Shown here piece by piece: positions 18,743-29,633 of a stretch of DNA of 64,000 nucleotides (its first letter is position 1; every line of letters begins with the position of its first letter). The notes under the pieces were generated by a model. It made no database searches, had not been told where the DNA came from, and saw nothing but the letters and a program-made list of their open reading frames with translations. This DNA is from an uncultured Leptospirales bacterium (GTDB lineage: Bacteria; Spirochaetota; UBA4802; JAKQUI01): contig CAZZCF010000001.1 in NCBI GenBank assembly GCA_964652955.1, positions 12,555 to 76,554 of the forward strand, in the 5' to 3' direction. The translations under genes and the position numbers were made by a program.

Positions 18743-19654
18743 ATGGCAAAACGGTTAATTCGATCGGTCGTTACGGCGGAGAGAAATCCGGCAGTTGCTA
18801 TCCTTCTCTCACTGCTGAGCACGGGACTCGGGCAGATCTATAACGGCGAGCTGTCGAAGGGGATAGTATTTTTTGCGCTGCGTGTGTTAACGCTGCTCTT
18901 TATCCCCCTTTCCTTTGTTGTCGATTTTCGGAGCTCCTCCCTTGCCGTTTTTATCGCGCTGGTGCTCATACATATATTCCTGTGGATTGCGGCAGCGGGT
19001 GAAGCCTGTATCTCGTCGATGCGAAAAAAAAAATATATTCTCACGGTGTATAACTCTGTAGTGCTCTATTGTGTGTTCGGTTGTGCGAGCACGCTTATCC
19101 TTCTGTTTCTCTTCGTGCCGGTATCGCTCTTCTTCCGGATCGAGACGGTTCCCTCGAATTCGATGAATCCGACACTGTTCAGAGGGGAGTCGGTTGTGGT
19201 TAATACCTACGTGGTGCGAAGCGTGAAACCGGGAGAGGTTGTTTTCTACAGGCAGGGCGGGGTGGCGAAATTCGGAAGGGTAATCGCAACAGCGGGTGAT
19301 GCGGTTGTCGATAAAGGGGGAGTGTTCGAGATTAATGATGTTGACCTTTCCCTGGGCGTTTTTACCGATGATGAGCTTGATCGCATGGGTCTGGAGAATA
19401 GTGACGATATCTTTACCGAGAACAATGGGGAGCGCAGATATCCGATTCGGTATCTGCCATCGAGAGGACGATCGCGGAAGAATCGCGTTCGTATAGCAAT
19501 CGAAAAGGGGGCGGTTCTCGTTGCGCCTGATAACAGGAGAAGAGAGGACGTCTATGAGATAATTCCTGTTACGGCGGTCCGGGGGCGGGTTGAGGGAATA
19601 GTGATGAGCAGTCGGATCCGGAGAATCATGCTGTTGCCGTATATTCGTGAATGA
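18743..19654 (+). CDS. lepB: Signal peptidase I (S26) catalytic domain fused to an N-terminal TM2-like domain
   Basis: 'SNSMNPTL' catalytic Ser box and a 'GDAVVDKG' region, preceded by an 'AILLSLLSTGLGQIYNGELSKG' TM2-domain-like segment and further TM helices. Confidence 0.65.
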   Translation: MAKRLIRSVVTAERNPAVAILLSLLSTGLGQIYNGELSKGIVFFALRVLTLLFIPLSFVVDFRSSSLAVFIALVLIHIFLWIAAAGEACISSMRKKKYILTVYNSVVLYCVFGCASTLILLFLFVPVSLFFRIETVPSNSMNPTLFRGESVVVNTYVVRSVKPGEVVFYRQGGVAKFGRVIATAGDAVVDKGGVFEINDVDLSLGVFTDDELDRMGLENSDDIFTENNGERRYPIRYLPSRGRSRKNRVRIAIEKGAVLVAPDNRRREDVYEIIPVTAVRGRVEGIVMSSRIRRIMLLPYIRE

Positions 19655-19789
19655 AGCTTCATGGTCCGTTTTTATCGCCTCAATGCGCTATGAAAAAATT
19701 TATCAATAGAGTGTGTAAATGATTTATGGTGGCAGGTGCAGCGAGAAGCTGTCTTGAATGTGTCGGGAGATGAAAAGGGGAGGAAAGGC

Positions 19790-20758
19790 ATGTCACTCGT
19801 AATTGGGTGTAATAGCTTTGTTGGCCGTTCACTGGCAAAAAGACTTCTGCAAAAAGGGGCTCCGGTGAGGGGCATGGATTTCTGGCGTGATGAGCGTGCT
19901 CCCGAGAAGCTGGAATTCATTGAGGGTTCGGTTCTTGATTACGACCTGTTGCTCGAAGCGTGTGCCGGTGTTGATGTTGTGTATCATCTCATGGAGGTGC
20001 GACATCCATCGCGGTATGGCAGAAGATTCATGAAGAAGATAAATGTTACCGGTACTGAAAATGTTATCAGGGCAGCACTGGAAAAGCAGGTGCAAAAGAT
20101 TATTGTTCTCTCCACGGCCGATATATACGGGAAACCGAAGGCAATTCCGGTCAAGCATGACGATCCGAAGAAACCGGTGAGCGCCTATGGCCGAGACAAG
20201 CTCCGGGCAGAGAAGATATGCTGGCGATATATTGAAAAGCATGGCGCCGATATCACCATTTTCAGATCTACCTTTATTGCGGGAGCGGGGGTTGATGATC
20301 CGATGATTCTTATCATGTTGTATATGGCGCTGGCACTGGGTGATGCCAATCGGCTCTATGTCGCCGGTGACGGCGATTCTCTCCTTCAGATGATTCATCC
20401 CGATGATGTGGTTGATGCCTTCCTTGCCGCAGTAACGTCCCCCCGATCACGGGGGAAGGCCTATAATATCGGATCGGATAATGTGCCTACCCAGATTGAG
20501 CAGGTGGTCAAGCTGAAAGAGCTCGCCAAGCTCGATTGCTATATAAAGCACCTCAATCCCCGTTGTACCCGCTTCCTCTCCCTGATCCTCCGCCCTCTGA
20601 ATATTCCCTATCTCTCGAAAGAGCATATCTTGGGACTTCTTTCGAATATCGTTCTCGACTGCAGCAGGGCAAAGCGGGAGATCAACTGGTATCCCAGGAA
20701 AGACAATATCGATATTCTCGTTGAAACATGTGCGTGGTATGAACGGGAAAAGCTCTGA
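19790..20758 (+). CDS. NAD-dependent epimerase/dehydratase (extended SDR)
   Basis: 'MSLVIGCNSFVGRSLAKRL' Rossmann N-terminus and 'YGRDKLRAEK' YxxxK. ATG 19790 follows an AAAGGGGAGGA RBS; the track ORF starts 54 nt earlier. Confidence 0.8.
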   Translation: MSLVIGCNSFVGRSLAKRLLQKGAPVRGMDFWRDERAPEKLEFIEGSVLDYDLLLEACAGVDVVYHLMEVRHPSRYGRRFMKKINVTGTENVIRAALEKQVQKIIVLSTADIYGKPKAIPVKHDDPKKPVSAYGRDKLRAEKICWRYIEKHGADITIFRSTFIAGAGVDDPMILIMLYMALALGDANRLYVAGDGDSLLQMIHPDDVVDAFLAAVTSPRSRGKAYNIGSDNVPTQIEQVVKLKELAKLDCYIKHLNPRCTRFLSLILRPLNIPYLSKEHILGLLSNIVLDCSRAKREINWYPRKDNIDILVETCAWYEREKL

Positions 20759-20765
20759 GCGGGGT

Positions 20766-22409
20766 TCAGCGCGTAAAGAGATTTTTGAGCGCCTCCCACA
20801 GTTTCAGGAGCAGCACTCTCAGCAGTTGTCCGGGAGTTCCTTCTCCGGCATTCATGGTGAGCATGAGCTGTGCTCTTTTGATCTCCTCCGCGGTGAGCGG
20901 TCGTGAGCGCGATATTTCCTTACGTTTTTTCTTAACCTCTTTTCTCGCGAGCTTTAAAATTTCCTTCTCTTCATCGAGTCGTGCACGGGTAACCATATCA
21001 TAGAGGGTGGGCTCATGAAGCAATCTCTCGCGGATCTGTTGCAGCCGCTCGTGAGCATTCTGCAGGTGCGGATTTTTTCTGTTTTCGCTCAATTCGAGCA
21101 ACAGCTCGAGGTACTGGTTCAGGAAATAAGCCTGCTTGTACAATCGCTTCAATTCATCAATGGAGAGGCGTTCGAGATCGATTCTCTCAAACTCGTCAAC
21201 TGCAGTAATGATAAAATCCAGTGTTTCATCGGTCACCTTGAAGAGATCTTCCTGCTTGAGATCGCGAAGCTCAATGAATCGGTACGCGACTTCTTTGAGG
21301 TCATTCAACATCTGCTCGGAGATCTCCAGGAGGTATCGCAGACCGCGTTTCTCATGTGCGTTCAGGTGTGCCGATCCCCTTTCGGCATCGGAGAGCTTCT
21401 TGCGGATGTCATTGATGCTCAGCTGAGAAGGTTCAGCGGCGGCGTACTTTCGCTGCAGGGTGAATTCTTTATCGATAAAATTCGGTTCTGCGAGATCCTG
21501 ACCGATTTTCAGTATGTTCAATTTGATGTCACCGAGCAGCCTGAGGATTTTAAATCTGTCTATCTTGCTGATACCGTCGGTCACCACCAGTATCTCTGAA
21601 CGCATGATATCCTTATCGCGTTTGATATCCTCAATGGCCTGTTCAATCGCGAACTGAAGATTGGTGCTCCTCCCACCGGTGGTTGTTAAGAGGACTTTTT
21701 CAATCAACAGCGGGAAGTCCTCTTTTTCCCCCAATCGGTGGAGATCTCCGACATCCGAGTCGAAGGATCGAAAGAATATCATGGCATTGGTGTTCATCTT
21801 CCTCCTGAGGAATTCGGCGACGAGGCATTTGGAGAAAAAGGATCTCATTTTAAGATCCATGGAACGGGATCGATCCAGGAGGAGGTAAACCTTCTGCTCA
21901 AATCGATTCGCTGTTTTGCCGGTTTCGTCACGGCTTGTTGTTATCGGTTTATACTGATCGTATTCTGATTTATAGAATTTCTGAACCTGCAGTGTTTTCG
22001 TGAGGAGCTTGATGTCGAATATATCGTCCTCCTGAGCGAGCTCTCGCGGAAGGGACTTCTTCAAATCGTATATGGTTTTGAAAAAAGCAATTTCCATCGT
22101 ATCGCTGAGCGGGGAAGAGATCTCTTTTCTGTTTATCAGTATTGATTCATCCCGGTTCGGAGCTTTCATCCGCTCCTCCCGTGAGAGCTCCTCGATAGCG
22201 GTGAGTGCATCTGAGACGGTTTCCGGCGTGAATACGACCCGTGCGATTTCGAATATGGTCAGAAATTCTCTCGGGAGCATTGTCGCAAGATTATCGAAGA
22301 ATCCCAGAGCGTCCCAGTATTCAAAGAAATTGGTGCTCGGCTTATATGAGCGGGAGATGCTTTTGGAAGATGTTTGTATCACTTCATCTGCCTCACGCGG
22401 AAGATGCAT
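20766..22409 (-). CDS. von Willebrand factor type A (VWA) domain protein with long N- and C-terminal helical extensions
   Basis: MIDAS motif 'LLLDRSRSM' (DxSxS), followed by a '...TTGGRSTNLQFAIEQA...VVTDG' VWA core. About 175 aa N-terminal and 300 aa C-terminal of it (coiled-coil-like) are unassigned. Confidence 0.75.
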   Translation of the reverse strand: MHLPREADEVIQTSSKSISRSYKPSTNFFEYWDALGFFDNLATMLPREFLTIFEIARVVFTPETVSDALTAIEELSREERMKAPNRDESILINRKEISSPLSDTMEIAFFKTIYDLKKSLPRELAQEDDIFDIKLLTKTLQVQKFYKSEYDQYKPITTSRDETGKTANRFEQKVYLLLDRSRSMDLKMRSFFSKCLVAEFLRRKMNTNAMIFFRSFDSDVGDLHRLGEKEDFPLLIEKVLLTTTGGRSTNLQFAIEQAIEDIKRDKDIMRSEILVVTDGISKIDRFKILRLLGDIKLNILKIGQDLAEPNFIDKEFTLQRKYAAAEPSQLSINDIRKKLSDAERGSAHLNAHEKRGLRYLLEISEQMLNDLKEVAYRFIELRDLKQEDLFKVTDETLDFIITAVDEFERIDLERLSIDELKRLYKQAYFLNQYLELLLELSENRKNPHLQNAHERLQQIRERLLHEPTLYDMVTRARLDEEKEILKLARKEVKKKRKEISRSRPLTAEEIKRAQLMLTMNAGEGTPGQLLRVLLLKLWEALKNLFTR

Positions 22410-22491
22410 CCTGTCGATCGTGAAGGGTTTGCATCGAATGGTGTCTGCTCTTTATCCCTCTCACCGGGGGCATTGCCCCTGGCGTATGAAC

Positions 22492-23994
22492 TTACAGTAT
22501 GTTGCCATAGTCTTTCAGGATGCCTTCCTTGAGCTCTCGTACTTCTTCAACGGCCGGATGCAATTCTGTTATGCTGTTTTTCAGCGTTGCCAGTGTTATC
22601 TCCTCCTCCTCCACCTTCGATTTGCCGGGGAATATCTTCTTGAAGAGCTTCCGCAACCCCTGGAGGAGGCCGGTATCCTCTTTCAGCCGTTCCCTCTTTT
22701 CCGGATCTTCCCTCATCTCCTGAAGGAGCTTCCTGATATTGAGCAAAAACTCGATCTGATGAATTGCGCCCGTCGAGGTGAATTGTACCATGGTCTGTTC
22801 GTATGCATCCAGGAAGGCGTCTTTTTCGGATTTATCTCGTGCTTTCACCGAGATGTAGCTGTTCAGCGTGCAGAGCATCAGATACAAACTTTTTACATCA
22901 TCCATGGATACTTCATGCCGGTTGTCGAGAAGGGCGGCAGCTCTCAGAAAATCCGCCGACTTCGCCAGTTTTCTCGGGCTGATGAAGAAATTATATTCGC
23001 TCCGTCGCATTTCGGAAACGAATTTGTTGGTGATCACATTTTTCATAAAGAACACGGTGTCGGGAATGGTAACCTGAATATCCCTGTTGTTGTTTTTGAT
23101 GATTTCGGAGATGTGTATTATCTGGCTGAAGGGGATTTTCTTTTCCGGTTCGGTTGGCTTGCCGCGGCTGAACGCATAGGTATGATCGATAAGGAGCTGA
23201 GAGTACATATTCGAATCTTCCGGAATAATGGCCTTATAGATGAAACGGTCGAGCACCGCCTCGGTGACTTCATTGATTCTCATATAGTTGGCTGTTGCGA
23301 TGGTCGAATGTACCGCCGCATCGATGATCTCGGGACCATTGATGAACTTCCGCTCGTTGAGAACGGAGAGGAGCGATCGGAGCACAACATCACTGGCGTC
23401 GAAAAACTCATCCAGAAAAACAAGATCGGCCTCGATAATGGAGCCGTGAATATTATGGCGAATGATTCCCTTTTTGAACTCCTCAATGTTATAGGGGCCG
23501 AAATAGTTATCGGGGGTCTGGTCCTTGCTCGCCTGCGATGAGAAGACCCGAACATTATCGAAGGTGTTGAAGATATAATTGGCAAGGTATGATTTTGCCA
23601 TGCCGGTTCTGCTCAGGAGGAGGAGATGCTCCTGGGTGAGTATGGCATACATCGCCTGTTTGATAATCTCATCCCGGCCGATGACGTTCTGGGAGATCCG
23701 TTCCATATGCCATTTTAAATAGCTCGTAATCGAGGGGATATCGTAGTCAGCCTCTTTCTCGACAATCTCCACCGGAATATCCGGTACTTTCCCCGGTTTT
23801 TTTTCGACCCGGCTGGTGACAACAAACTGAGAGGGTGTCTCCGTATCGCGCTCAATCCTGTCGTCCTCGCGGCATATTCCCGGTTCCGCATCATCGGGTG
23901 TGTAAATATAGTACCCCTCTTCTTCGAACAGCGATTCGACTGAAGCGTATTTGATTAATTCTCGTTTTTCCGATTTTGATCGCATCGTATACAT
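22492..23994 (-). CDS. MoxR-like AAA+ ATPase (AAA_3/AAA_5 class) with degenerate P-loop and long terminal extensions
   Basis: 'GRDEIIKQAMYAILTQEHLLLLSRTGMAKS' (Walker A-like), 'DLVFLDEF' (Walker B), 'TIATANYM' (sensor 1) and 'AVLDRFIYK' (arginine finger) are arranged as in MoxR/RavA. ATG 23994 lies 13 nt after the kinase stop behind a GGAGA RBS. Confidence 0.75.
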   Translation of the reverse strand: MYTMRSKSEKRELIKYASVESLFEEEGYYIYTPDDAEPGICREDDRIERDTETPSQFVVTSRVEKKPGKVPDIPVEIVEKEADYDIPSITSYLKWHMERISQNVIGRDEIIKQAMYAILTQEHLLLLSRTGMAKSYLANYIFNTFDNVRVFSSQASKDQTPDNYFGPYNIEEFKKGIIRHNIHGSIIEADLVFLDEFFDASDVVLRSLLSVLNERKFINGPEIIDAAVHSTIATANYMRINEVTEAVLDRFIYKAIIPEDSNMYSQLLIDHTYAFSRGKPTEPEKKIPFSQIIHISEIIKNNNRDIQVTIPDTVFFMKNVITNKFVSEMRRSEYNFFISPRKLAKSADFLRAAALLDNRHEVSMDDVKSLYLMLCTLNSYISVKARDKSEKDAFLDAYEQTMVQFTSTGAIHQIEFLLNIRKLLQEMREDPEKRERLKEDTGLLQGLRKLFKKIFPGKSKVEEEEITLATLKNSITELHPAVEEVRELKEGILKDYGNIL

Positions 23995-24007
23995 CAATCT
24001 CCGGTTT

Positions 24008-25624
24008 TCATTCGTTAACGGCCGGTACGAGGATCTTTACCGAGGTGCCTTCCCCGGGAGAGCTCTTGATCCCGATAGTTCCCCCCATGTTTTCGATGAT
24101 GGAGTAGGTTACCATCAGTCCCAGTCCGGATGCCTTCTTCCCCTTGGTGGTAAAAAAGGGCTGGAAGATACTTTTAAGGTTCTCTTTCGGAATGCCGATT
24201 CCGTTATCTTCGACCAGTATGGAGGCGAAGGTGCTGCTGTTTACTGATACCGAATCAACGGAGAGCACGAGCTCGCCCTTGTCGGGCATGGCGTCCTCCG
24301 CGTTGGAAATGAGATGCAGCAGGACCTGTATCAATTGATTGCGTATGCCCCTGACGCGCGGGCTCTTCTCCGAGTAGGAGGTCGTCACCTTGTACCCGTT
24401 TTTCTGGAGCCTGTTCAGGGTTGCCTGGATGGGATGGGCGGTCAGGATCTTGTGCAGATCAAAGACTTCCTTGGCTTCCTCCTCGGGCTTCGAGAGGCTC
24501 AGCAGCTGATCGGGGATTTTCTTAATGCGCTCCAGCTCATTTTTGAGCGAATGTACATAATCAGCCACCGGGCTCTTGTCGTCGATGTTCTTTTCGATGA
24601 AGTTGAGATCCATTGTCATGAGATTGAGGGGAACTTTCAGCTCGAAGGCGACGCCGTTTGCGAGCAGCCCCATGGCGGAGAGCTTCTCCGACCGCTTCAT
24701 CTTGTTTGCGATTTTCATCTGTTCGGTAATGTCCTCGACCATGACCAGGATGCTCTTGACCTTCATGTTGGTGTCGAGGAGCGGATTCATTCGCACGTTA
24801 AGATTGAGTTTTCTGTCCCGGGAGGGCGGGACATATTCGATATTATCCTGTTGTACCGGTTTTTTCCTGAGAACGGCATCATCGAGGAGTTTTTGCATCC
24901 CTGACTCTTTAAAGCCGGGGTGTTCGGAGAGGTTGATGCCGATAGTGGTTTCTTTGGCCTCCTGCCCCATGAGCTGTCTGAAAGCCGGATTATCACTGAG
25001 GATAATCCCGGTTGGTTCCAGCGTGAATATGCCGATGGGAGCGCTCTCGATTATTTCATCGTTCAGGGTTTTCAGCCGCTTCATCTCTTCAGCCTGCAGG
25101 AACTGCTCCCGAATACGTTCTTCCAGCCTGATGGTGTTTTCTCGAAGCTTCTTCTCCATCAGGTGCATGTCGGTGATGTCTCTCAGGATGGCGATGAGGC
25201 CGATAACGCTGCCATCTTCAAATCGTATCGGTGAGAAGTTGGCAATAAAGTATGTGAGATTGCCGTCTCTATCATAGGTTTTCATCTTTTCGTTATGGAA
25301 TACCCGTCCTTCTTTGAGCACCAGCTCGAAGACAATCCGTGCTCGCTCCAGTTCGATTTCCGGGATGTATTCAGAATAGTGCATACCGACTGCTTCATCG
25401 CGTGAGAATTTCGACAGCTTTTCGCCGGCTTCGTTGACAAAGAGAAAGTTCCCGGAACTATCAAGTAAGAATATTACATCGGAAGCGGACTCTACCAGGT
25501 ATTTGTAGTAGAGTCCCAGGTCCATCATGAGCGATTGTTCTTCATTTTTTTTACGATATGCTATGAACTTCTCAATGATTTCTTCTTTGCTCAGTGATTC
25601 TAATTCTTTCGGATTAATTGCCAT
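24008..25624 (-). CDS. Cytoplasmic PAS-PAS sensor histidine kinase-like protein (HisKA-like + HATPase_c), phospho-acceptor position occupied by Phe
   Basis: It has no TM segment and two PAS-like regions. The HATPase_c N box 'LLHLISNAEDAM', G1 'DNGIGI' and G2 'GLGL' are present. The H-box region reads 'GVAFELKVPL', where the family consensus is G-x-A-H-E-x-x-x-P-L. Confidence 0.8.
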   Translation of the reverse strand: MAINPKELESLSKEEIIEKFIAYRKKNEEQSLMMDLGLYYKYLVESASDVIFLLDSSGNFLFVNEAGEKLSKFSRDEAVGMHYSEYIPEIELERARIVFELVLKEGRVFHNEKMKTYDRDGNLTYFIANFSPIRFEDGSVIGLIAILRDITDMHLMEKKLRENTIRLEERIREQFLQAEEMKRLKTLNDEIIESAPIGIFTLEPTGIILSDNPAFRQLMGQEAKETTIGINLSEHPGFKESGMQKLLDDAVLRKKPVQQDNIEYVPPSRDRKLNLNVRMNPLLDTNMKVKSILVMVEDITEQMKIANKMKRSEKLSAMGLLANGVAFELKVPLNLMTMDLNFIEKNIDDKSPVADYVHSLKNELERIKKIPDQLLSLSKPEEEAKEVFDLHKILTAHPIQATLNRLQKNGYKVTTSYSEKSPRVRGIRNQLIQVLLHLISNAEDAMPDKGELVLSVDSVSVNSSTFASILVEDNGIGIPKENLKSIFQPFFTTKGKKASGLGLMVTYSIIENMGGTIGIKSSPGEGTSVKILVPAVNE

Positions 25625-25713
25625 GGCATACCACTTCTCAGAGAAGAATGGGGTTTCCGATATCTACCATTAAAATATATCAAATCCCCTCCTAAAAACA
25701 ACTACAATTTTTT

Positions 25714-26151
25714 TTAGGATATGCGCACCGTGTTGAAAAACCATACTTCAACGATGAGGCTCACAAGAGTGCCGGCGAGGAATGATAGTGCGAAGAAGGT
25801 GTAATTCATTCTGAAAATAAAATATCCCCCCAGAGCAAAGATCGCCAGAATGACGACTCGCAGGATAAATCCCGCGAGGGTTACTGTGAGGAGAACCAGG
25901 ATGTTTGATCGCATTCCCCTGAGGGCGCCGAGCAACCACAGAAACGAGAGCGTCGCACTTGCTGTTGTTCCGGTAAGATATCCCAGAAAGGCTGCAATCC
26001 CGCGGTATTTGAGACAGAGGAGCGCGATGCCGAAATTCACGAGAGTGGCAATCGCGATCGGATAGAGAGCTTTTCTCGTACCTGTCATGGGACTCCCGGA
26101 GAGAATTGTGTTGATAAAACGACCGTACAGAAAAACCGGGTCCCGGGGCAC
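25714..26151 (-). CDS. Small integral membrane protein (about 4 TM), unknown function
   Basis: 145-aa hydrophobic ORF between adk and the kinase gene on the same strand. No motif recognised and the start is uncertain (an alternative Met lies at residue 22). Confidence 0.45.
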   Translation of the reverse strand: MPRDPVFLYGRFINTILSGSPMTGTRKALYPIAIATLVNFGIALLCLKYRGIAAFLGYLTGTTASATLSFLWLLGALRGMRSNILVLLTVTLAGFILRVVILAIFALGGYFIFRMNYTFFALSFLAGTLVSLIVEVWFFNTVRIS

Positions 26152-26187
26152 ACTTCGGATCCCCTTCCACGGAATGGCGGGGGCGGC

Positions 26188-26880
26188 TTACTTCAGCTGC
26201 GAGAGGAGCTCAGCGCTGACCTCTTCGACACCGGGTTTTCCGTCCAGCTCAATGATGCGGGGGCGGCCGTTGTTGTCCCGTGCAATCTGCTTGAAGTACT
26301 CAACTGATGCGAGCGTTCCCTCATCACGGTCGTAATAAATGGCGTGGCGTTTATCAATTGCCCCCTCGTCCTGATCATCGGCTCTTGCTGAAAGCGCGCC
26401 ACCGCAGACTCTGCAGACAAGCTCACCGTCTTTTTCTCGTGGCCTGATCGCCTCAATATAGATGTTATTGGGGTGATTGTTGTCGTTTTCGCACAATCGC
26501 CTTCCCATAATTCTCTTTTTCGCCGTTTCTCGATCCAGGACGATTTCGATGACATAATCGAGCGAGATATTCTCCCGATCAAGAGCTTCATTCAGAGCTT
26601 GTGCCTGTGCCCCGTTTCTGGGAAAACCGTCGAGGAGCCAGCCCTCTCTGCAATCGTCCTCTTTCAATCTGCTCAGTATCATCGGGATGGTTATGTCGTC
26701 GGGAACGAGGTCGCCTCTATCGATGAACTCCTTCGCCTTTTTCCCGAGCGCTGTTCCCTTTGTGATGTTTTCCCTGAATATCACACCCGATTCGATATGG
26801 GGAATCTGGTATTTTTTCTGTACGATGGCCCCCTGCGTTCCCTTGCCGCTTCCGTTTGGCCCGAAGATCAGTATATTCAT
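26188..26880 (-). CDS. adk: Adenylate kinase with Cys-rich (zinc) LID
   Basis: 'MNILIFGPNGSGKGTQG' P-loop, 'GFPRNGAQAQAL', and a LID carrying the Cys pair 'CRVCGG'. Confidence 0.95.
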   Translation of the reverse strand: MNILIFGPNGSGKGTQGAIVQKKYQIPHIESGVIFRENITKGTALGKKAKEFIDRGDLVPDDITIPMILSRLKEDDCREGWLLDGFPRNGAQAQALNEALDRENISLDYVIEIVLDRETAKKRIMGRRLCENDNNHPNNIYIEAIRPREKDGELVCRVCGGALSARADDQDEGAIDKRHAIYYDRDEGTLASVEYFKQIARDNNGRPRIIELDGKPGVEEVSAELLSQLK

Positions 26881-27235
26881 CCATACACCTCGCTTTCACT
26901 GCAAAGTTCGCTGCTGATTACGTGTTGAGTCAGGAGACGATGAGCACCCGCGTTCATTATAGAACGAGATTACGATAGGGGCGAAAATTGTAAAGAAAGT
27001 TTTGCAACAATGCGTCAATCCGGGCGATGAGTTTTCTGCCATCTCCGTTTCATCATGGTGCGGGTAATAGGGTATGGCCCCTCCGGGGGTGATAATGATC
27101 ATTTGTATTGTGCTTGACCTCCTAGTATTTTCCATTATCGATAGTATCGTCTGCCATATAGTGCGGGATAGCTGACAGGAGGAGGTTGACGTGATCGTGC
27201 AGAACAGGCCACAGAAATAACGCAGGGAGGATGAC

Positions 27236-27691
27236 ATGGAATTTATACCGGTTGAAAAGCTCAAAGAGATGATTGGCCAGGAGATGGGAGTGAGCGACTG
27301 GGTTCAGATTGATCAGGGGAAAATAAATCAGTTCGCCGAATGTACCGGTGATCATCAGTGGATACACGTTGATGTCGAGAAGGCAAAGCAGGGCCCCTTT
27401 GGCGGACCCATTGCACACGGTTTTCTCACCCTCTCACTGATACCGGTTTTGAGCGGCTCGAGCAAATACATGCCGGAGGGAATCAAGATGGCCATTAACT
27501 ACGGGCTCAATAAGGTCAGGTTCATCAACCCCGTACCGGCCGGCTCGCGGGTTCGGAGCAGAATGGTCCTGGCGGATATTGAAGAACGCTCCGGCGGAAG
27601 AATAATGATGACCACCACTCATAATATCGAGATTGAGGGGCAGGATAAACCGGCATGTATTGCTGAATCGCTGGCGCTCTTCTATGTGTAG
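27236..27691 (+). CDS. MaoC-like (R)-specific enoyl-CoA hydratase / hot-dog dehydratase
   Basis: 'NQFAECTGDHQWIHVDVEKAKQGPFGGPIAHGF' is the MaoC dehydratase signature. Confidence 0.85.
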   Translation: MEFIPVEKLKEMIGQEMGVSDWVQIDQGKINQFAECTGDHQWIHVDVEKAKQGPFGGPIAHGFLTLSLIPVLSGSSKYMPEGIKMAINYGLNKVRFINPVPAGSRVRSRMVLADIEERSGGRIMMTTTHNIEIEGQDKPACIAESLALFYV

Positions 27692-27965
27692 AGGGTTTCT
27701 CTTGTTTCCTGGAAAAGCTTAAAAGTCCAGACCGGATTACGGGATGATAAGGAAATTTTTTCAATCCTGATAATCTGAACAGAGTGTTTAAATGTTTAAT
27801 TCAGTTGAAACGATGATGAGGCTCGCAAAAGATAAGGAGAAAGGGAATAAGAATAACCACAACATGAAATCCTGTTATCCCGTCTAATTTTTTTCCTTTC
27901 CATAATGTGAGTGTCTCAGGATCGTAGATGATGTGATCAGAGGGTTTATTTACAAGGAGGAAACC

Positions 27966-29633
27966 ATGGAGGAGAAGCCCTGGCATCGCCATTATGATTA
28001 CTGTGTCCCCACCACGATTCGCTATCCGAGAATTCCTGCGCATGAAATACTTCAGATTCCGGTGAGCGGCTTTCCGGACAAAACAGCGCTGTACTTTTAC
28101 GGCACGGAGATGACATTCTGGGAGCTCCGGCAGCGTGTTCTGATCATGGCAACCGCCCTTCAGTCGCTGGGCGTGCGGAAGGGGGATCGGGTCGGCGTGC
28201 ATCTTCCCAACTGCCCGCAGTTCGTCATAGCGTATTACGCGGTCATGTCGCTCGGTGCGATTGTGGTCAACCTCAACCCCATGTATACCGCCGAGGAGCT
28301 CAAGGCCGTTGCGGCGAATACCGGCATGACCGCGCTGTTTACCTTCGATATGTTCATTGAGAACGTCCGGAAGATGCTCGAGGCGGTTGAGATTCCCCGG
28401 GTGATCGTCACACGGGTAACCGATTTTATCGACGGGATTCCCCGGAGCACGCCGGAGGATCTCGGCTTGGAGGAGGGGTGGCATCACTTCTCGCTGCTCA
28501 TGGATGCCGTTACGAGCGTGAAGCGCCCCCGCGTTGATATAGTCCCGGATGATCCGGCGCTCATACAGTTCACCGGCGGAACAACCGGCATTCCCAAGGG
28601 GGCGGTGTTGACCCACGGGAATCTCGTTGCGGCGACGCTGCAGTGCGCGCTCTGGGGGTCGGCGACAATCGGGTATATCGCGCCGGAGCGGCGGAACGTG
28701 CTCTCGGTGCTTCCCTATTTTCACGTCTACGGTGCCATTGTCGCCCTGAGCTGGGGTATGTTCAGCTGCGCAACACAGATAGTGGTTCCCCGCTTTGAGA
28801 TCGATGAGCTCATGGGTATCATCGCGAATTTCAATGAGATTACCTTCTTCCCGGCCGTTCCCACCATGATAAACGCGGTTATCAATCACCCGAAGGCGGA
28901 TGAGCTGAACCTCGCCAGGCGGCTCGGGCTCCTGAACAGCGGAGGCGGTCCCATGCCGGTAGAGCTCATTGAGAAGGCCCGGGATATGAACATCAACTAC
29001 AGCGAGGGGTGGGGCATGAGCGAGACCACCTCCCTCGGCATCGCGAACCCCGTTCTCGGCCTCAAGAAGAGCGGTGGGATAGGTATCCCCTTCCCCGATA
29101 CCGATATTCGCATTGTCGATGTTGAAAAGGGCGTGGAGGAGGTCCCCCGGGGGGAACCGGGCGAGATTGTTATCAGGAGCCCGCTGGTCATGAAGGAGTA
29201 CTGGAACAATCCCGAGGAAACGGCGGGGCAGCTCAGGGATGGATGGCTCTCTACCGGTGATATCGCCTATTTTGATGATGATGACTATGTTTTTATCGTC
29301 GATCGGAAGAAGGATATGATAATTGCCGGCGGTTACAATATATACCCGCGGGAGATCGACGAGGTGCTCTACGAGCATCCCAAGATTGCCGATGCCGTTG
29401 CCGTGGGAATTCCCGATGAGTATCGCGGCGAAACAGTCAAGGCGTACATCGTGCCCCGAGAAGGGGAGACCCTCACCGAAAAGGAGGTCATCGATTTCTG
29501 CAAGGAGAAGCTCGCGCCCTACAAGCAGCCGAAGGTTGTCGAGTTCCGAAAAGAGCTTCCGAAATCGGCCGTGGGAAAGATCCTTCGAAAGATACTCCGC
29601 GACGAGGAGATGGGGAAGGGGAAGGGGAAGTAG
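27966..29633 (+). CDS. Long-chain acyl-CoA synthetase / AMP-dependent synthetase-ligase
   Basis: AMP-binding 'TGGTTGIPKGAVLTHGNL' and a 'GEIVIRSPLVMKEYWNNPEETA' region. Start is ATG 27966 after a GGAGGAAACC RBS. Confidence 0.9.
   Translation: MEEKPWHRHYDYCVPTTIRYPRIPAHEILQIPVSGFPDKTALYFYGTEMTFWELRQRVLIMATALQSLGVRKGDRVGVHLPNCPQFVIAYYAVMSLGAIVVNLNPMYTAEELKAVAANTGMTALFTFDMFIENVRKMLEAVEIPRVIVTRVTDFIDGIPRSTPEDLGLEEGWHHFSLLMDAVTSVKRPRVDIVPDDPALIQFTGGTTGIPKGAVLTHGNLVAATLQCALWGSATIGYIAPERRNVLSVLPYFHVYGAIVALSWGMFSCATQIVVPRFEIDELMGIIANFNEITFFPAVPTMINAVINHPKADELNLARRLGLLNSGGGPMPVELIEKARDMNINYSEGWGMSETTSLGIANPVLGLKKSGGIGIPFPDTDIRIVDVEKGVEEVPRGEPGEIVIRSPLVMKEYWNNPEETAGQLRDGWLSTGDIAYFDDDDYVFIVDRKKDMIIAGGYNIYPREIDEVLYEHPKIADAVAVGIPDEYRGETVKAYIVPREGETLTEKEVIDFCKEKLAPYKQPKVVEFRKELPKSAVGKILRKILRDEEMGKGKGK

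Follow-up and report, generated by a model that had tools for sequence, protein, structure and literature searches.

We analysed a 64,000-nucleotide stretch of DNA from an uncultured Leptospirales bacterium (hereafter the window), in which five genes follow one another on the minus strand: adk, a gene for a small hydrophobic protein, a histidine kinase (HK)-like gene, a gene for a MoxR-type AAA+ ATPase and a gene for a VWA protein. The HK-like gene (24008..25624; all features below lie on the minus strand unless stated otherwise) encodes 538 amino acids (aa), and its open reading frame (ORF), Pfam matches, AlphaFold2 (AF2) model and Foldseek matches gave the architecture PAS1, coiled coil, PAS2, a dimerization and histidine phosphotransfer (DHp) domain lacking its phospho-acceptor histidine, and a catalytic and ATP-binding (CA) domain of the HATPase_c type. 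PAS1 (residues 40 to 150; 25175..25507) was delimited from Pfam PAS, PAS_4 and PAS_9 matches and the AF2 secondary structure, and PAS2 (residues 195 to 299; 24728..25042), delimited from a second Pfam PAS stretch and the model, is joined directly to the DHp helix. The DHp helical hairpin spans residues 300 to 375 (24500..24727), with helices at residues 300 to 346 and 352 to 375 in the model, and the CA, or GHKL ATP-binding, domain (residues 386 to 538; 24011..24469) has intact N, G1, F and G2 boxes. The AF2 model, made from an alignment of the family described below, had a pLDDT (predicted local distance difference test) of 84.9 and showed PAS1, a long coiled coil, PAS2, the DHp hairpin and an alpha/beta CA domain. 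When this model was compared with the PDB using Foldseek, the matches were full-length sensor kinases, with a NifL chain (9qq6_A, 538 columns) at rank 2; the DivL core (4q20) and the HK-related domains of the plant phytochromes phyA and phyB were also among them. The NCBIfam NifL model (TIGR02938) aligned over residues 40 to 531 with 94.9 bits, below its cut-off of 242.45.

At the phospho-acceptor position of the H box, the protein has a phenylalanine, Phe327, encoded by TTC at 24644..24646. The reverse complement of 24500..24760 contains GGC GTC GCC TTC GAG CTG AAA GTT CCC CTC AAT, translating to GVAFELKVPLN, with TTC as codon 327 of the ORF at 24646..24644 (24650..24641 prints CGC CTT CGA G on the minus strand). 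In a phmmer search of PDB chains with the C-terminal 240 residues, GVAFELKVPL stood opposite GVAHEIRNPL of ZraS (E=2.6e-28), and Phe327 was also opposite the phospho-histidines of KinB (SISHEIRNPL) and LvrB (MAHEINNPL). In a MAFFT alignment, the same column held histidine in 40 of 40 homologues from outside the family (P0081-P0120). Pfam HisKA matched residues 319 to 382 with 21.4 bits, under its gathering score of 26.9, and the conserved phospho-acceptor histidine, the mark of canonical HisKA sensor kinases, is absent from the HK-like protein.

The exact protein was found on seven contigs, the two places shown being an ENA assembly and a Logan assembly from different samples, and GVAFELK was also present in two non-identical alleles of the same 90% cluster (P0121 and P0122). 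A sequencing or assembly error was excluded, because going from TTC to CAY takes two substitutions, the seven contigs agree and the two diverged alleles keep Phe. We also considered another histidine in register within the DHp helix and rejected it: His358, in helix 2, is not kept across the family, and neither DHp helix contains a conserved histidine. A preliminary description of this locus, made from its letters alone, had reported that the H-box histidine was replaced by Phe, that the codon was TTC at 24646..24644 and that its distance of two changes from a His codon spoke against a single sequencing error. The codon read, the PDB alignments, the homologue column and the diverged alleles bore out all of this, and we confirm that Phe occupies the phospho-acceptor position, with the description, coordinates and codon correct.

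A word-indexed search retrieved a bounded family of 80 proteins that are 41 to 77% identical to the query, full-length members being mostly 531 to 548 aa long. Full-length members scored at least 445 bits and three fragments 300 to 413 bits, while the next match reached 205 bits; beyond this sharp drop, the nearest canonical HKs were approximately 25 to 32% identical to the HK-like protein. The named members come from Spirochaetes/Spirochaetota metagenome bins, except for one labelled Chrysiogenales, and are annotated in their sources as 'PAS domain S-box protein' or 'sporulation sensor kinase A'. In these 80 orthologues, the acceptor column held Ser (43), Tyr (28), Leu (4), Glu (3), Phe (1) and Gln (1), and His in none. 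Giant multi-PAS proteins dominated when 1.84 billion cluster representatives were searched exhaustively with an HMMER profile, and only approximately 10 of the 150 matches listed were informative. Among the matches listed were ten single-stretch matches at family level, two of which (P0040 and P0075) were already in the 80-protein set; the eight new representatives carried Ser, Glu, Leu, Glu, Lys, Glu, Tyr and Tyr at site 327, again with no His (0/8). Four more loci, reached through a DNA pattern or the MoxR gene, had Ser, Ser, Ser and Tyr. The DNA patterns searched for in genome contigs were too general; at least two true family loci (L006 and L007) were among the matches, and the taxonomic picture at species level is coarse. 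Family-wide, the column therefore reads S, Y, L, E, F, Q or K, and never H.

A neighbour-joining tree divided the family into two clades, one with Tyr and one with Ser, with a branch carrying Glu at the base of each, and placed the Phe of the window, together with its 74%-identical Leu-bearing relatives, inside the Tyr clade. The codons at the site (TAC for Tyr, TTC for Phe and TCN for Ser) are compatible with a single-step path. Judged from the tree and the codons, the simplest history would be an ancestral change of His to Tyr followed later by Tyr to Phe (TAC to TTC). The phospho-histidine was lost in the common ancestor of this Spirochaetota-wide HK-like family with the order PAS, PAS, DHp and CA. 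The preliminary description had proposed an alignment of orthologues as a check. The alignment contained no histidine at this position, in the 80 orthologues or the eight further representatives, and the Phe is real. The loss is no oddity of a single gene: Phe itself is uncommon (1/80), with Ser and Tyr dominating, and it is the His-less site that defines the family, Phe probably being a recent derivative of Tyr.

The domains around the lost histidine are strongly conserved. Pfam HATPase_c (PF02518) matched residues 428 to 535 with 78.8 bits, so that the protein has the catalytic domain of canonical HKs, with N441 in the N box, D473xG475xG477 in G1, F487, P489, F490 and F491 in the F box and G500-L-G502 in G2. 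Among the 66 full-length members, N441, D473, G475, G477, P489, F490, T493, K494, G495, G500, L501 and G502 were invariant (T493, K494 and G495 being counted with the F box and lid), and F487, Q488 and F491 nearly so. The segment from G1 through F to G2 was the most conserved of the protein, with a mean column entropy of 0.66 bits versus 1.55 bits for the whole, and the second most conserved segment, at 0.99 bits, was DHp residues 328 to 346, just past the lost histidine. Its conserved residues include E328, N334, N341, F342 and N346, and E328, the Glu directly after the acceptor site (H+1), was kept in 75 of 76 members. In canonical kinases, receiver domains dock on this surface of DHp helix 1. 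The variability of site 327 itself was average, and Tyr and Ser were each stable in clades with 57 to 59% mean pairwise identity. The ATP pocket and the DHp surface are under strong purifying selection. The preliminary description had found the N, G1 and G2 boxes intact and had suggested an ATP-binding pseudo-kinase; the boxes are intact, the F box included, and all are invariant across the family. As far as sequence goes, the pseudo-kinase suggestion is supported, with ATP motifs invariant down to 41% identity.

One histidine elsewhere in the protein was conserved. His397 (24434..24436) is the sole His kept in more than 90% of the family (71/76), with Arg or Tyr in the other five members. It is specific to the family, canonical relatives having Asp, Glu or Gln, and its position is an 'HP' kink where the CA domain begins.

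Downstream of the HK-like gene lie the genes for a bpMoxR-type AAA+ ATPase of 500 aa (22492..23994; PF20030 at 110.7 bits, and AAA_5) and for a VWA protein (20766..22409; 538 to 547 aa), identified from its conserved metal ion-dependent adhesion site (MIDAS) residues, a weak Pfam VWA_2 match and Foldseek VWA matches; a convergent NAD-dependent epimerase gene follows the VWA gene. In the window, MoxR starts 13 nt past the HK-like stop. A bpMoxR gene came directly after the HK-like gene in all 11 contexts examined, two of which had been picked via MoxR, and these contexts span the Tyr, Ser, Glu, Gln, Leu and Phe variants. The two genes were separated by gaps of 13 to 22 nt or overlapped by 4 to 11 nt, with the exception of a 79-nt gap in one locus (L090). 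In all but one of the 11 contexts (10/11), MoxR was followed by the VWA gene; the remaining one is a short contig that may be broken. The HK-like, MoxR and VWA trio is also kept around a shorter member that has one PAS domain and other flanks, and we therefore regard the three genes as a unit. The linkage of the HK-like gene to MoxR-VWA is obligate.

Both partners look active, since the Walker A and B motifs of the one and the MIDAS of the other are conserved. The MoxR proteins were 58 to 90% identical among more than 120 clusters, and a deviant Walker A (LLLSRTGMAKS) and a Walker B (LVFLDEFFD) were invariant in seven loci. Compared with GxxxxGK[ST], the first Gly of the P-loop is replaced by Ser and the second by Ala, and the window P-loop resembles the GxxxTAKS form reported in beta-propeller and FtsH-type MoxR proteins. 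The first approximately 95 MoxR residues, ahead of the bpMoxR domain, were poorly conserved. In the VWA protein, the MIDAS elements DRS[RK]SM, TTGG.ST and VTDG were conserved (DRSRSM and TTGGRST in the window). Its AF2 model was poor (pLDDT 55.6), with only the VWA core recognizable, and its top Foldseek PDB matches were all VWA domains. The protein has a conserved N-terminal region (FFEYWD.LGFF, LPRELA), the MIDAS-type core with helical regions on its flanks, and a long C-terminal half that is helical in the low-confidence model; the hydrophobic helix at its end, GQLLRVLLLKLWEALKNLF, could anchor the protein in a membrane. It was labelled 'hypothetical protein' in every source.

Upstream lie adk (26188..26880), first in the same-strand order, and the gene for the small hydrophobic protein (25714..26088; 124 aa), which has no Pfam match, belongs to no known family and is probably a multi-pass membrane protein. 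The preliminary description had the HK-like gene heading a MoxR-VWA operon. It does precede MoxR by 13 nt, but the small membrane-protein gene, approximately 90 nt upstream on the same strand, may be the first. In 9 of the 11 contexts, the gene immediately upstream of the HK-like one encodes 124 to 141 aa and has no Pfam match, and the small membrane protein may serve as a fourth component by tethering the unit to the membrane.

The order adk, membrane protein, HK-like, MoxR, VWA, convergent NAD-epimerase and S26 signal peptidase recurred between loci (18743..26880 in the window; L001, L003, L088, L091 and L092), often with an MBL-fold hydrolase nearby. As this gene order recurs across members that are only 41 to 57% identical, it points to a vertically inherited core locus and not to a mobile island. 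PADLOC defence models matched none of the four proteins (small membrane protein, HK-like, MoxR and VWA), and a scan of 20300..27300 for promoters and terminators gave no more sites than shuffled sequence. Further upstream, a minus-strand ORF (27801..29378) and a plus-strand ORF (27933..29633) overlap. The minus-strand ORF has no Pfam match and is probably spurious, because the positional counterpart of the plus-strand ORF in L086 has an AMP-binding enzyme fold. STAS-domain proteins are the usual substrate of GHKL Ser kinases, and a STAS-domain gene lies on the opposite strand approximately 1.3 kb upstream of one orthologue (L001, 6333..6671); it was not seen in the other contexts and is probably coincidental.

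Among known systems, the closest architectural parallel is NifL. In the structure of NifL-NifA from A. vinelandii (9qq6), NifL's DH and GHKL domains clamp the AAA+ domain of NifA without phosphotransfer, and the complex, which is stabilized by ADP on the GHKL domain, keeps the ATPase from oligomerizing (PMC12998190). The HK-like protein shares the order PAS1, PAS2, DH (DHp) and GHKL and lacks the acceptor histidine; GHKL binds adenine nucleotide in NifL, and in both cases the AAA+ partner belongs to the same system, contact being presumed for the HK-like protein. The partners differ, however, being here an AAA+ protein of the MoxR class together with a VWA protein and for NifL a sigma-54 enhancer-binding protein, and so do the lineages (Spirochaetota and Proteobacteria, respectively). 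Plant phytochromes offer a second parallel: their HK-related domain (HKRD) is an HK-like DHp/CA module that follows PAS-type domains, lacks the conserved His and acts via protein interaction, although it is eukaryotic, has a PAS-GAF-PHY sensory module and is not known to have a MoxR or VWA partner.

By analogy with the action of NifL on NifA, we propose, with little better than even confidence, that the HK-like protein is a PAS-sensing, nucleotide-binding pseudo-HK that controls MoxR-VWA by direct contact. The protein would run no His-to-Asp phosphorelay. Its PAS domains would take in a signal, and its CA domain would read ATP/ADP or adopt a nucleotide-dependent conformation and so act as a switch. 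The DHp and CA surfaces would bind the co-expressed MoxR ATPase or the VWA adaptor, and the bound protein would gate the assembly or activity of the MoxR chaperone. Phe327 would then be the version carried by the window lineage (Tyr to Phe) of a site freed from accepting phosphate. A phosphorelay is unlikely because no receiver is at hand, and phosphorylation at site 327 cannot be the common mechanism, since at least six chemically unrelated residues occur there, with F and L nested in the Tyr clade, and since operon and conserved pocket are the same in variants with Phe, Leu, Glu, Gln or Lys.

Several observations weigh against this proposal. Contact of the HK-like protein with MoxR or with the VWA protein is deduced only from their being co-encoded. 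NifA is a sigma-54 enhancer-binding protein and no MoxR, and the NifL score of 94.9 lies far under the cut-off of 242 bits, so that the analogy is one of architecture and not of system homology. Tyr and Ser have each been kept through large clades, which hints at residual hydroxyl chemistry at site 327. Finally, the intact catalytic pocket and the retention of E328 (75/76) exceed what nucleotide sensing needs and would fit phosphotransfer to another acceptor.

These last two points lead to a somewhat improbable alternative, in which the protein is a re-targeted protein kinase whose CA domain passes the gamma-phosphate to a hydroxyl, either on Tyr or Ser at 327 or on a Ser, Thr or Tyr of MoxR, VWA or another substrate. 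The GHKL Ser kinases SpoIIAB and RsbW and the mitochondrial kinases PDK/BCKDK are precedents for such re-targeted phosphotransfer. All catalytic and ATP-binding motifs are kept along with the H+1 Glu, and a hydroxyl residue, Ser or Tyr, occupies the acceptor position in 71 of the 80 orthologues, each of them clade-stable. However, Phe in the window, Leu in its nearest relatives, and Glu, Gln and Lys cannot be phosphorylated there, yet are found with the same operon and pocket. We identified no conserved candidate acceptor in MoxR or VWA, and DivL, in which Tyr replaces His, was found to have neither kinase nor phosphatase activity (PMC4211667).

The composition of the unit also invites comparison with the MoxR-vWA 'ternary systems' described by Kaur, Burroughs, Iyer and Aravind in 2020. 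In the beta-propeller subtype of these systems, the MoxR P-loop is GxxxTAKS, the vWA protein is strictly found with a C-terminal beta-propeller and the third component combines TPR and beta-propeller (PMC7159879). Like that subtype, the window has a MoxR that matches bpMoxR (PF20030, 110.7 bits) and carries a deviant P-loop of the A-K-S type, followed by a vWA protein and completed by a third conserved component. In contrast, the window vWA protein has no propeller match in Pfam or by fold, its C-terminal half being helical in a low-confidence model; the third component is a PAS-HK-like protein, and neither propeller nor TPR was matched in Pfam. The locus is also unlike a conflict island, since it has no variable effector and no PADLOC match and lies in stable core synteny (adk to epimerase). 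A rather unlikely reading is that the PAS-pseudoHK, bpMoxR and VWA proteins, together with the small membrane protein, form an undescribed fifth type of MoxR-vWA three-component machine, rewired from a two-component transmitter. In such a machine, the ATP-loaded CA domain and the DHp face with its invariant Glu328 would dock the VWA MIDAS or the MoxR ring in place of a receiver, and an environmental signal arriving via the PAS domains would directly gate the AAA+ chaperone. Were this true, a MoxR ATPase would for the first time have a defined input pathway.

It is distinctly unlikely that the protein works as a DivL-like sensor, with its DHp domain docking an unlinked, phosphorylated response regulator and relaying that state to MoxR-VWA or to another kinase. 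In DivL of Caulobacter (4q20), Tyr stands in for the phospho-histidine, as does Ala in Magnetospirillum; neither kinase nor phosphatase activity was found for DivL, and its HK core now serves for binding, DivL interacting with the receiver DivK~P and regulating CckA (PMC4211667). For the DivL revertant Y550H, a still competent catalytic pocket is reported. The HK-like protein resembles DivL as a multi-PAS protein with its phospho-histidine replaced, by Tyr in one large clade of the family, the receiver-docking part of DHp helix 1 (residues 328 to 346) is very conserved, and 4q20 was among both the sequence and the fold matches. The differences are nevertheless considerable. The window protein has Phe, the Tyr of DivL occurring in 28 of its 80 relatives, the source clade of the Phe; the phmmer match to DivL was weaker (4e-10) than that to ZraS (3e-28); and the DivL nucleotide pocket is described as restricted (PMC4211667), whereas every ATP motif is invariant here. 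The conserved neighbours are MoxR and VWA, with no linked receiver. When CheY and the DHp-CA core of the HK-like protein were used as phmmer queries on the 64-kb window, neither a receiver domain nor a second HK core was detected, only the gene itself; among the flanks displayed for the 11 contexts, no receiver gene is conserved, the single one seen (in L091) being unconserved. The response regulator that is usually adjacent to canonical HKs was thus not detected in the window or as a conserved gene of these flanks; an unlinked partner could exist. The HK-like protein is no orthologue of DivL or of NifL.

A very improbable option is that the protein is still a histidine kinase, either because a canonical HK, paired with it in a heterodimer, phosphorylates it in trans or because His397 serves as a relocated acceptor. 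The preliminary description had itself proposed action in trans, and His397 is family-specific and kept in 71 of 76 members. His397, however, is at the start of the CA domain and not on the DHp helix, and five members have Arg or Tyr instead. Heterodimers are unlikely because the nearest canonical HKs, past the sharp score drop, are only approximately 25 to 32% identical, leaving no paralogue near enough for DHp heterodimers, and with neither an HK nor a receiver domain detected in the window, the in-trans part of the preliminary description found no support, in contrast to its core observation, which is confirmed, and its pseudo-kinase suggestion, which the conserved motifs support. An artefact or a drifting, decaying pseudogene is next to impossible and was rejected, as only the departure from the HisKA consensus itself speaks for it, against an identical protein on seven contigs, diverged alleles with Phe, intact ORFs of 534 to 547 aa in almost all full-length members and functional motifs invariant down to 41% identity.

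The concept of a His-less HK is established, while its strict coupling to a MoxR chaperone is undescribed: our literature searches found no description of an association of HK-like, MoxR and VWA proteins. The family-level, ancestral loss defines a variant both of pseudo-histidine kinases and of MoxR-VWA three-component units. To our knowledge, His-less HK-like proteins are represented by only a few well-studied cases, namely DivL, NifL and the plant phytochrome HKRD. To these is added a large, cleanly delimited family with an ancestral His loss, a preserved ATP pocket and an invariant genomic partner, features that make its function experimentally tractable. For annotation, it follows that censuses of two-component systems should leave family members out of their count of functional histidine kinases. 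MoxR AAA+ ATPases are widespread, and as far as we know their on/off switches are largely unknown; a dedicated PAS-sensor protein wired to MoxR and VWA provides a concrete case in which to ask how a MoxR chaperone is regulated.

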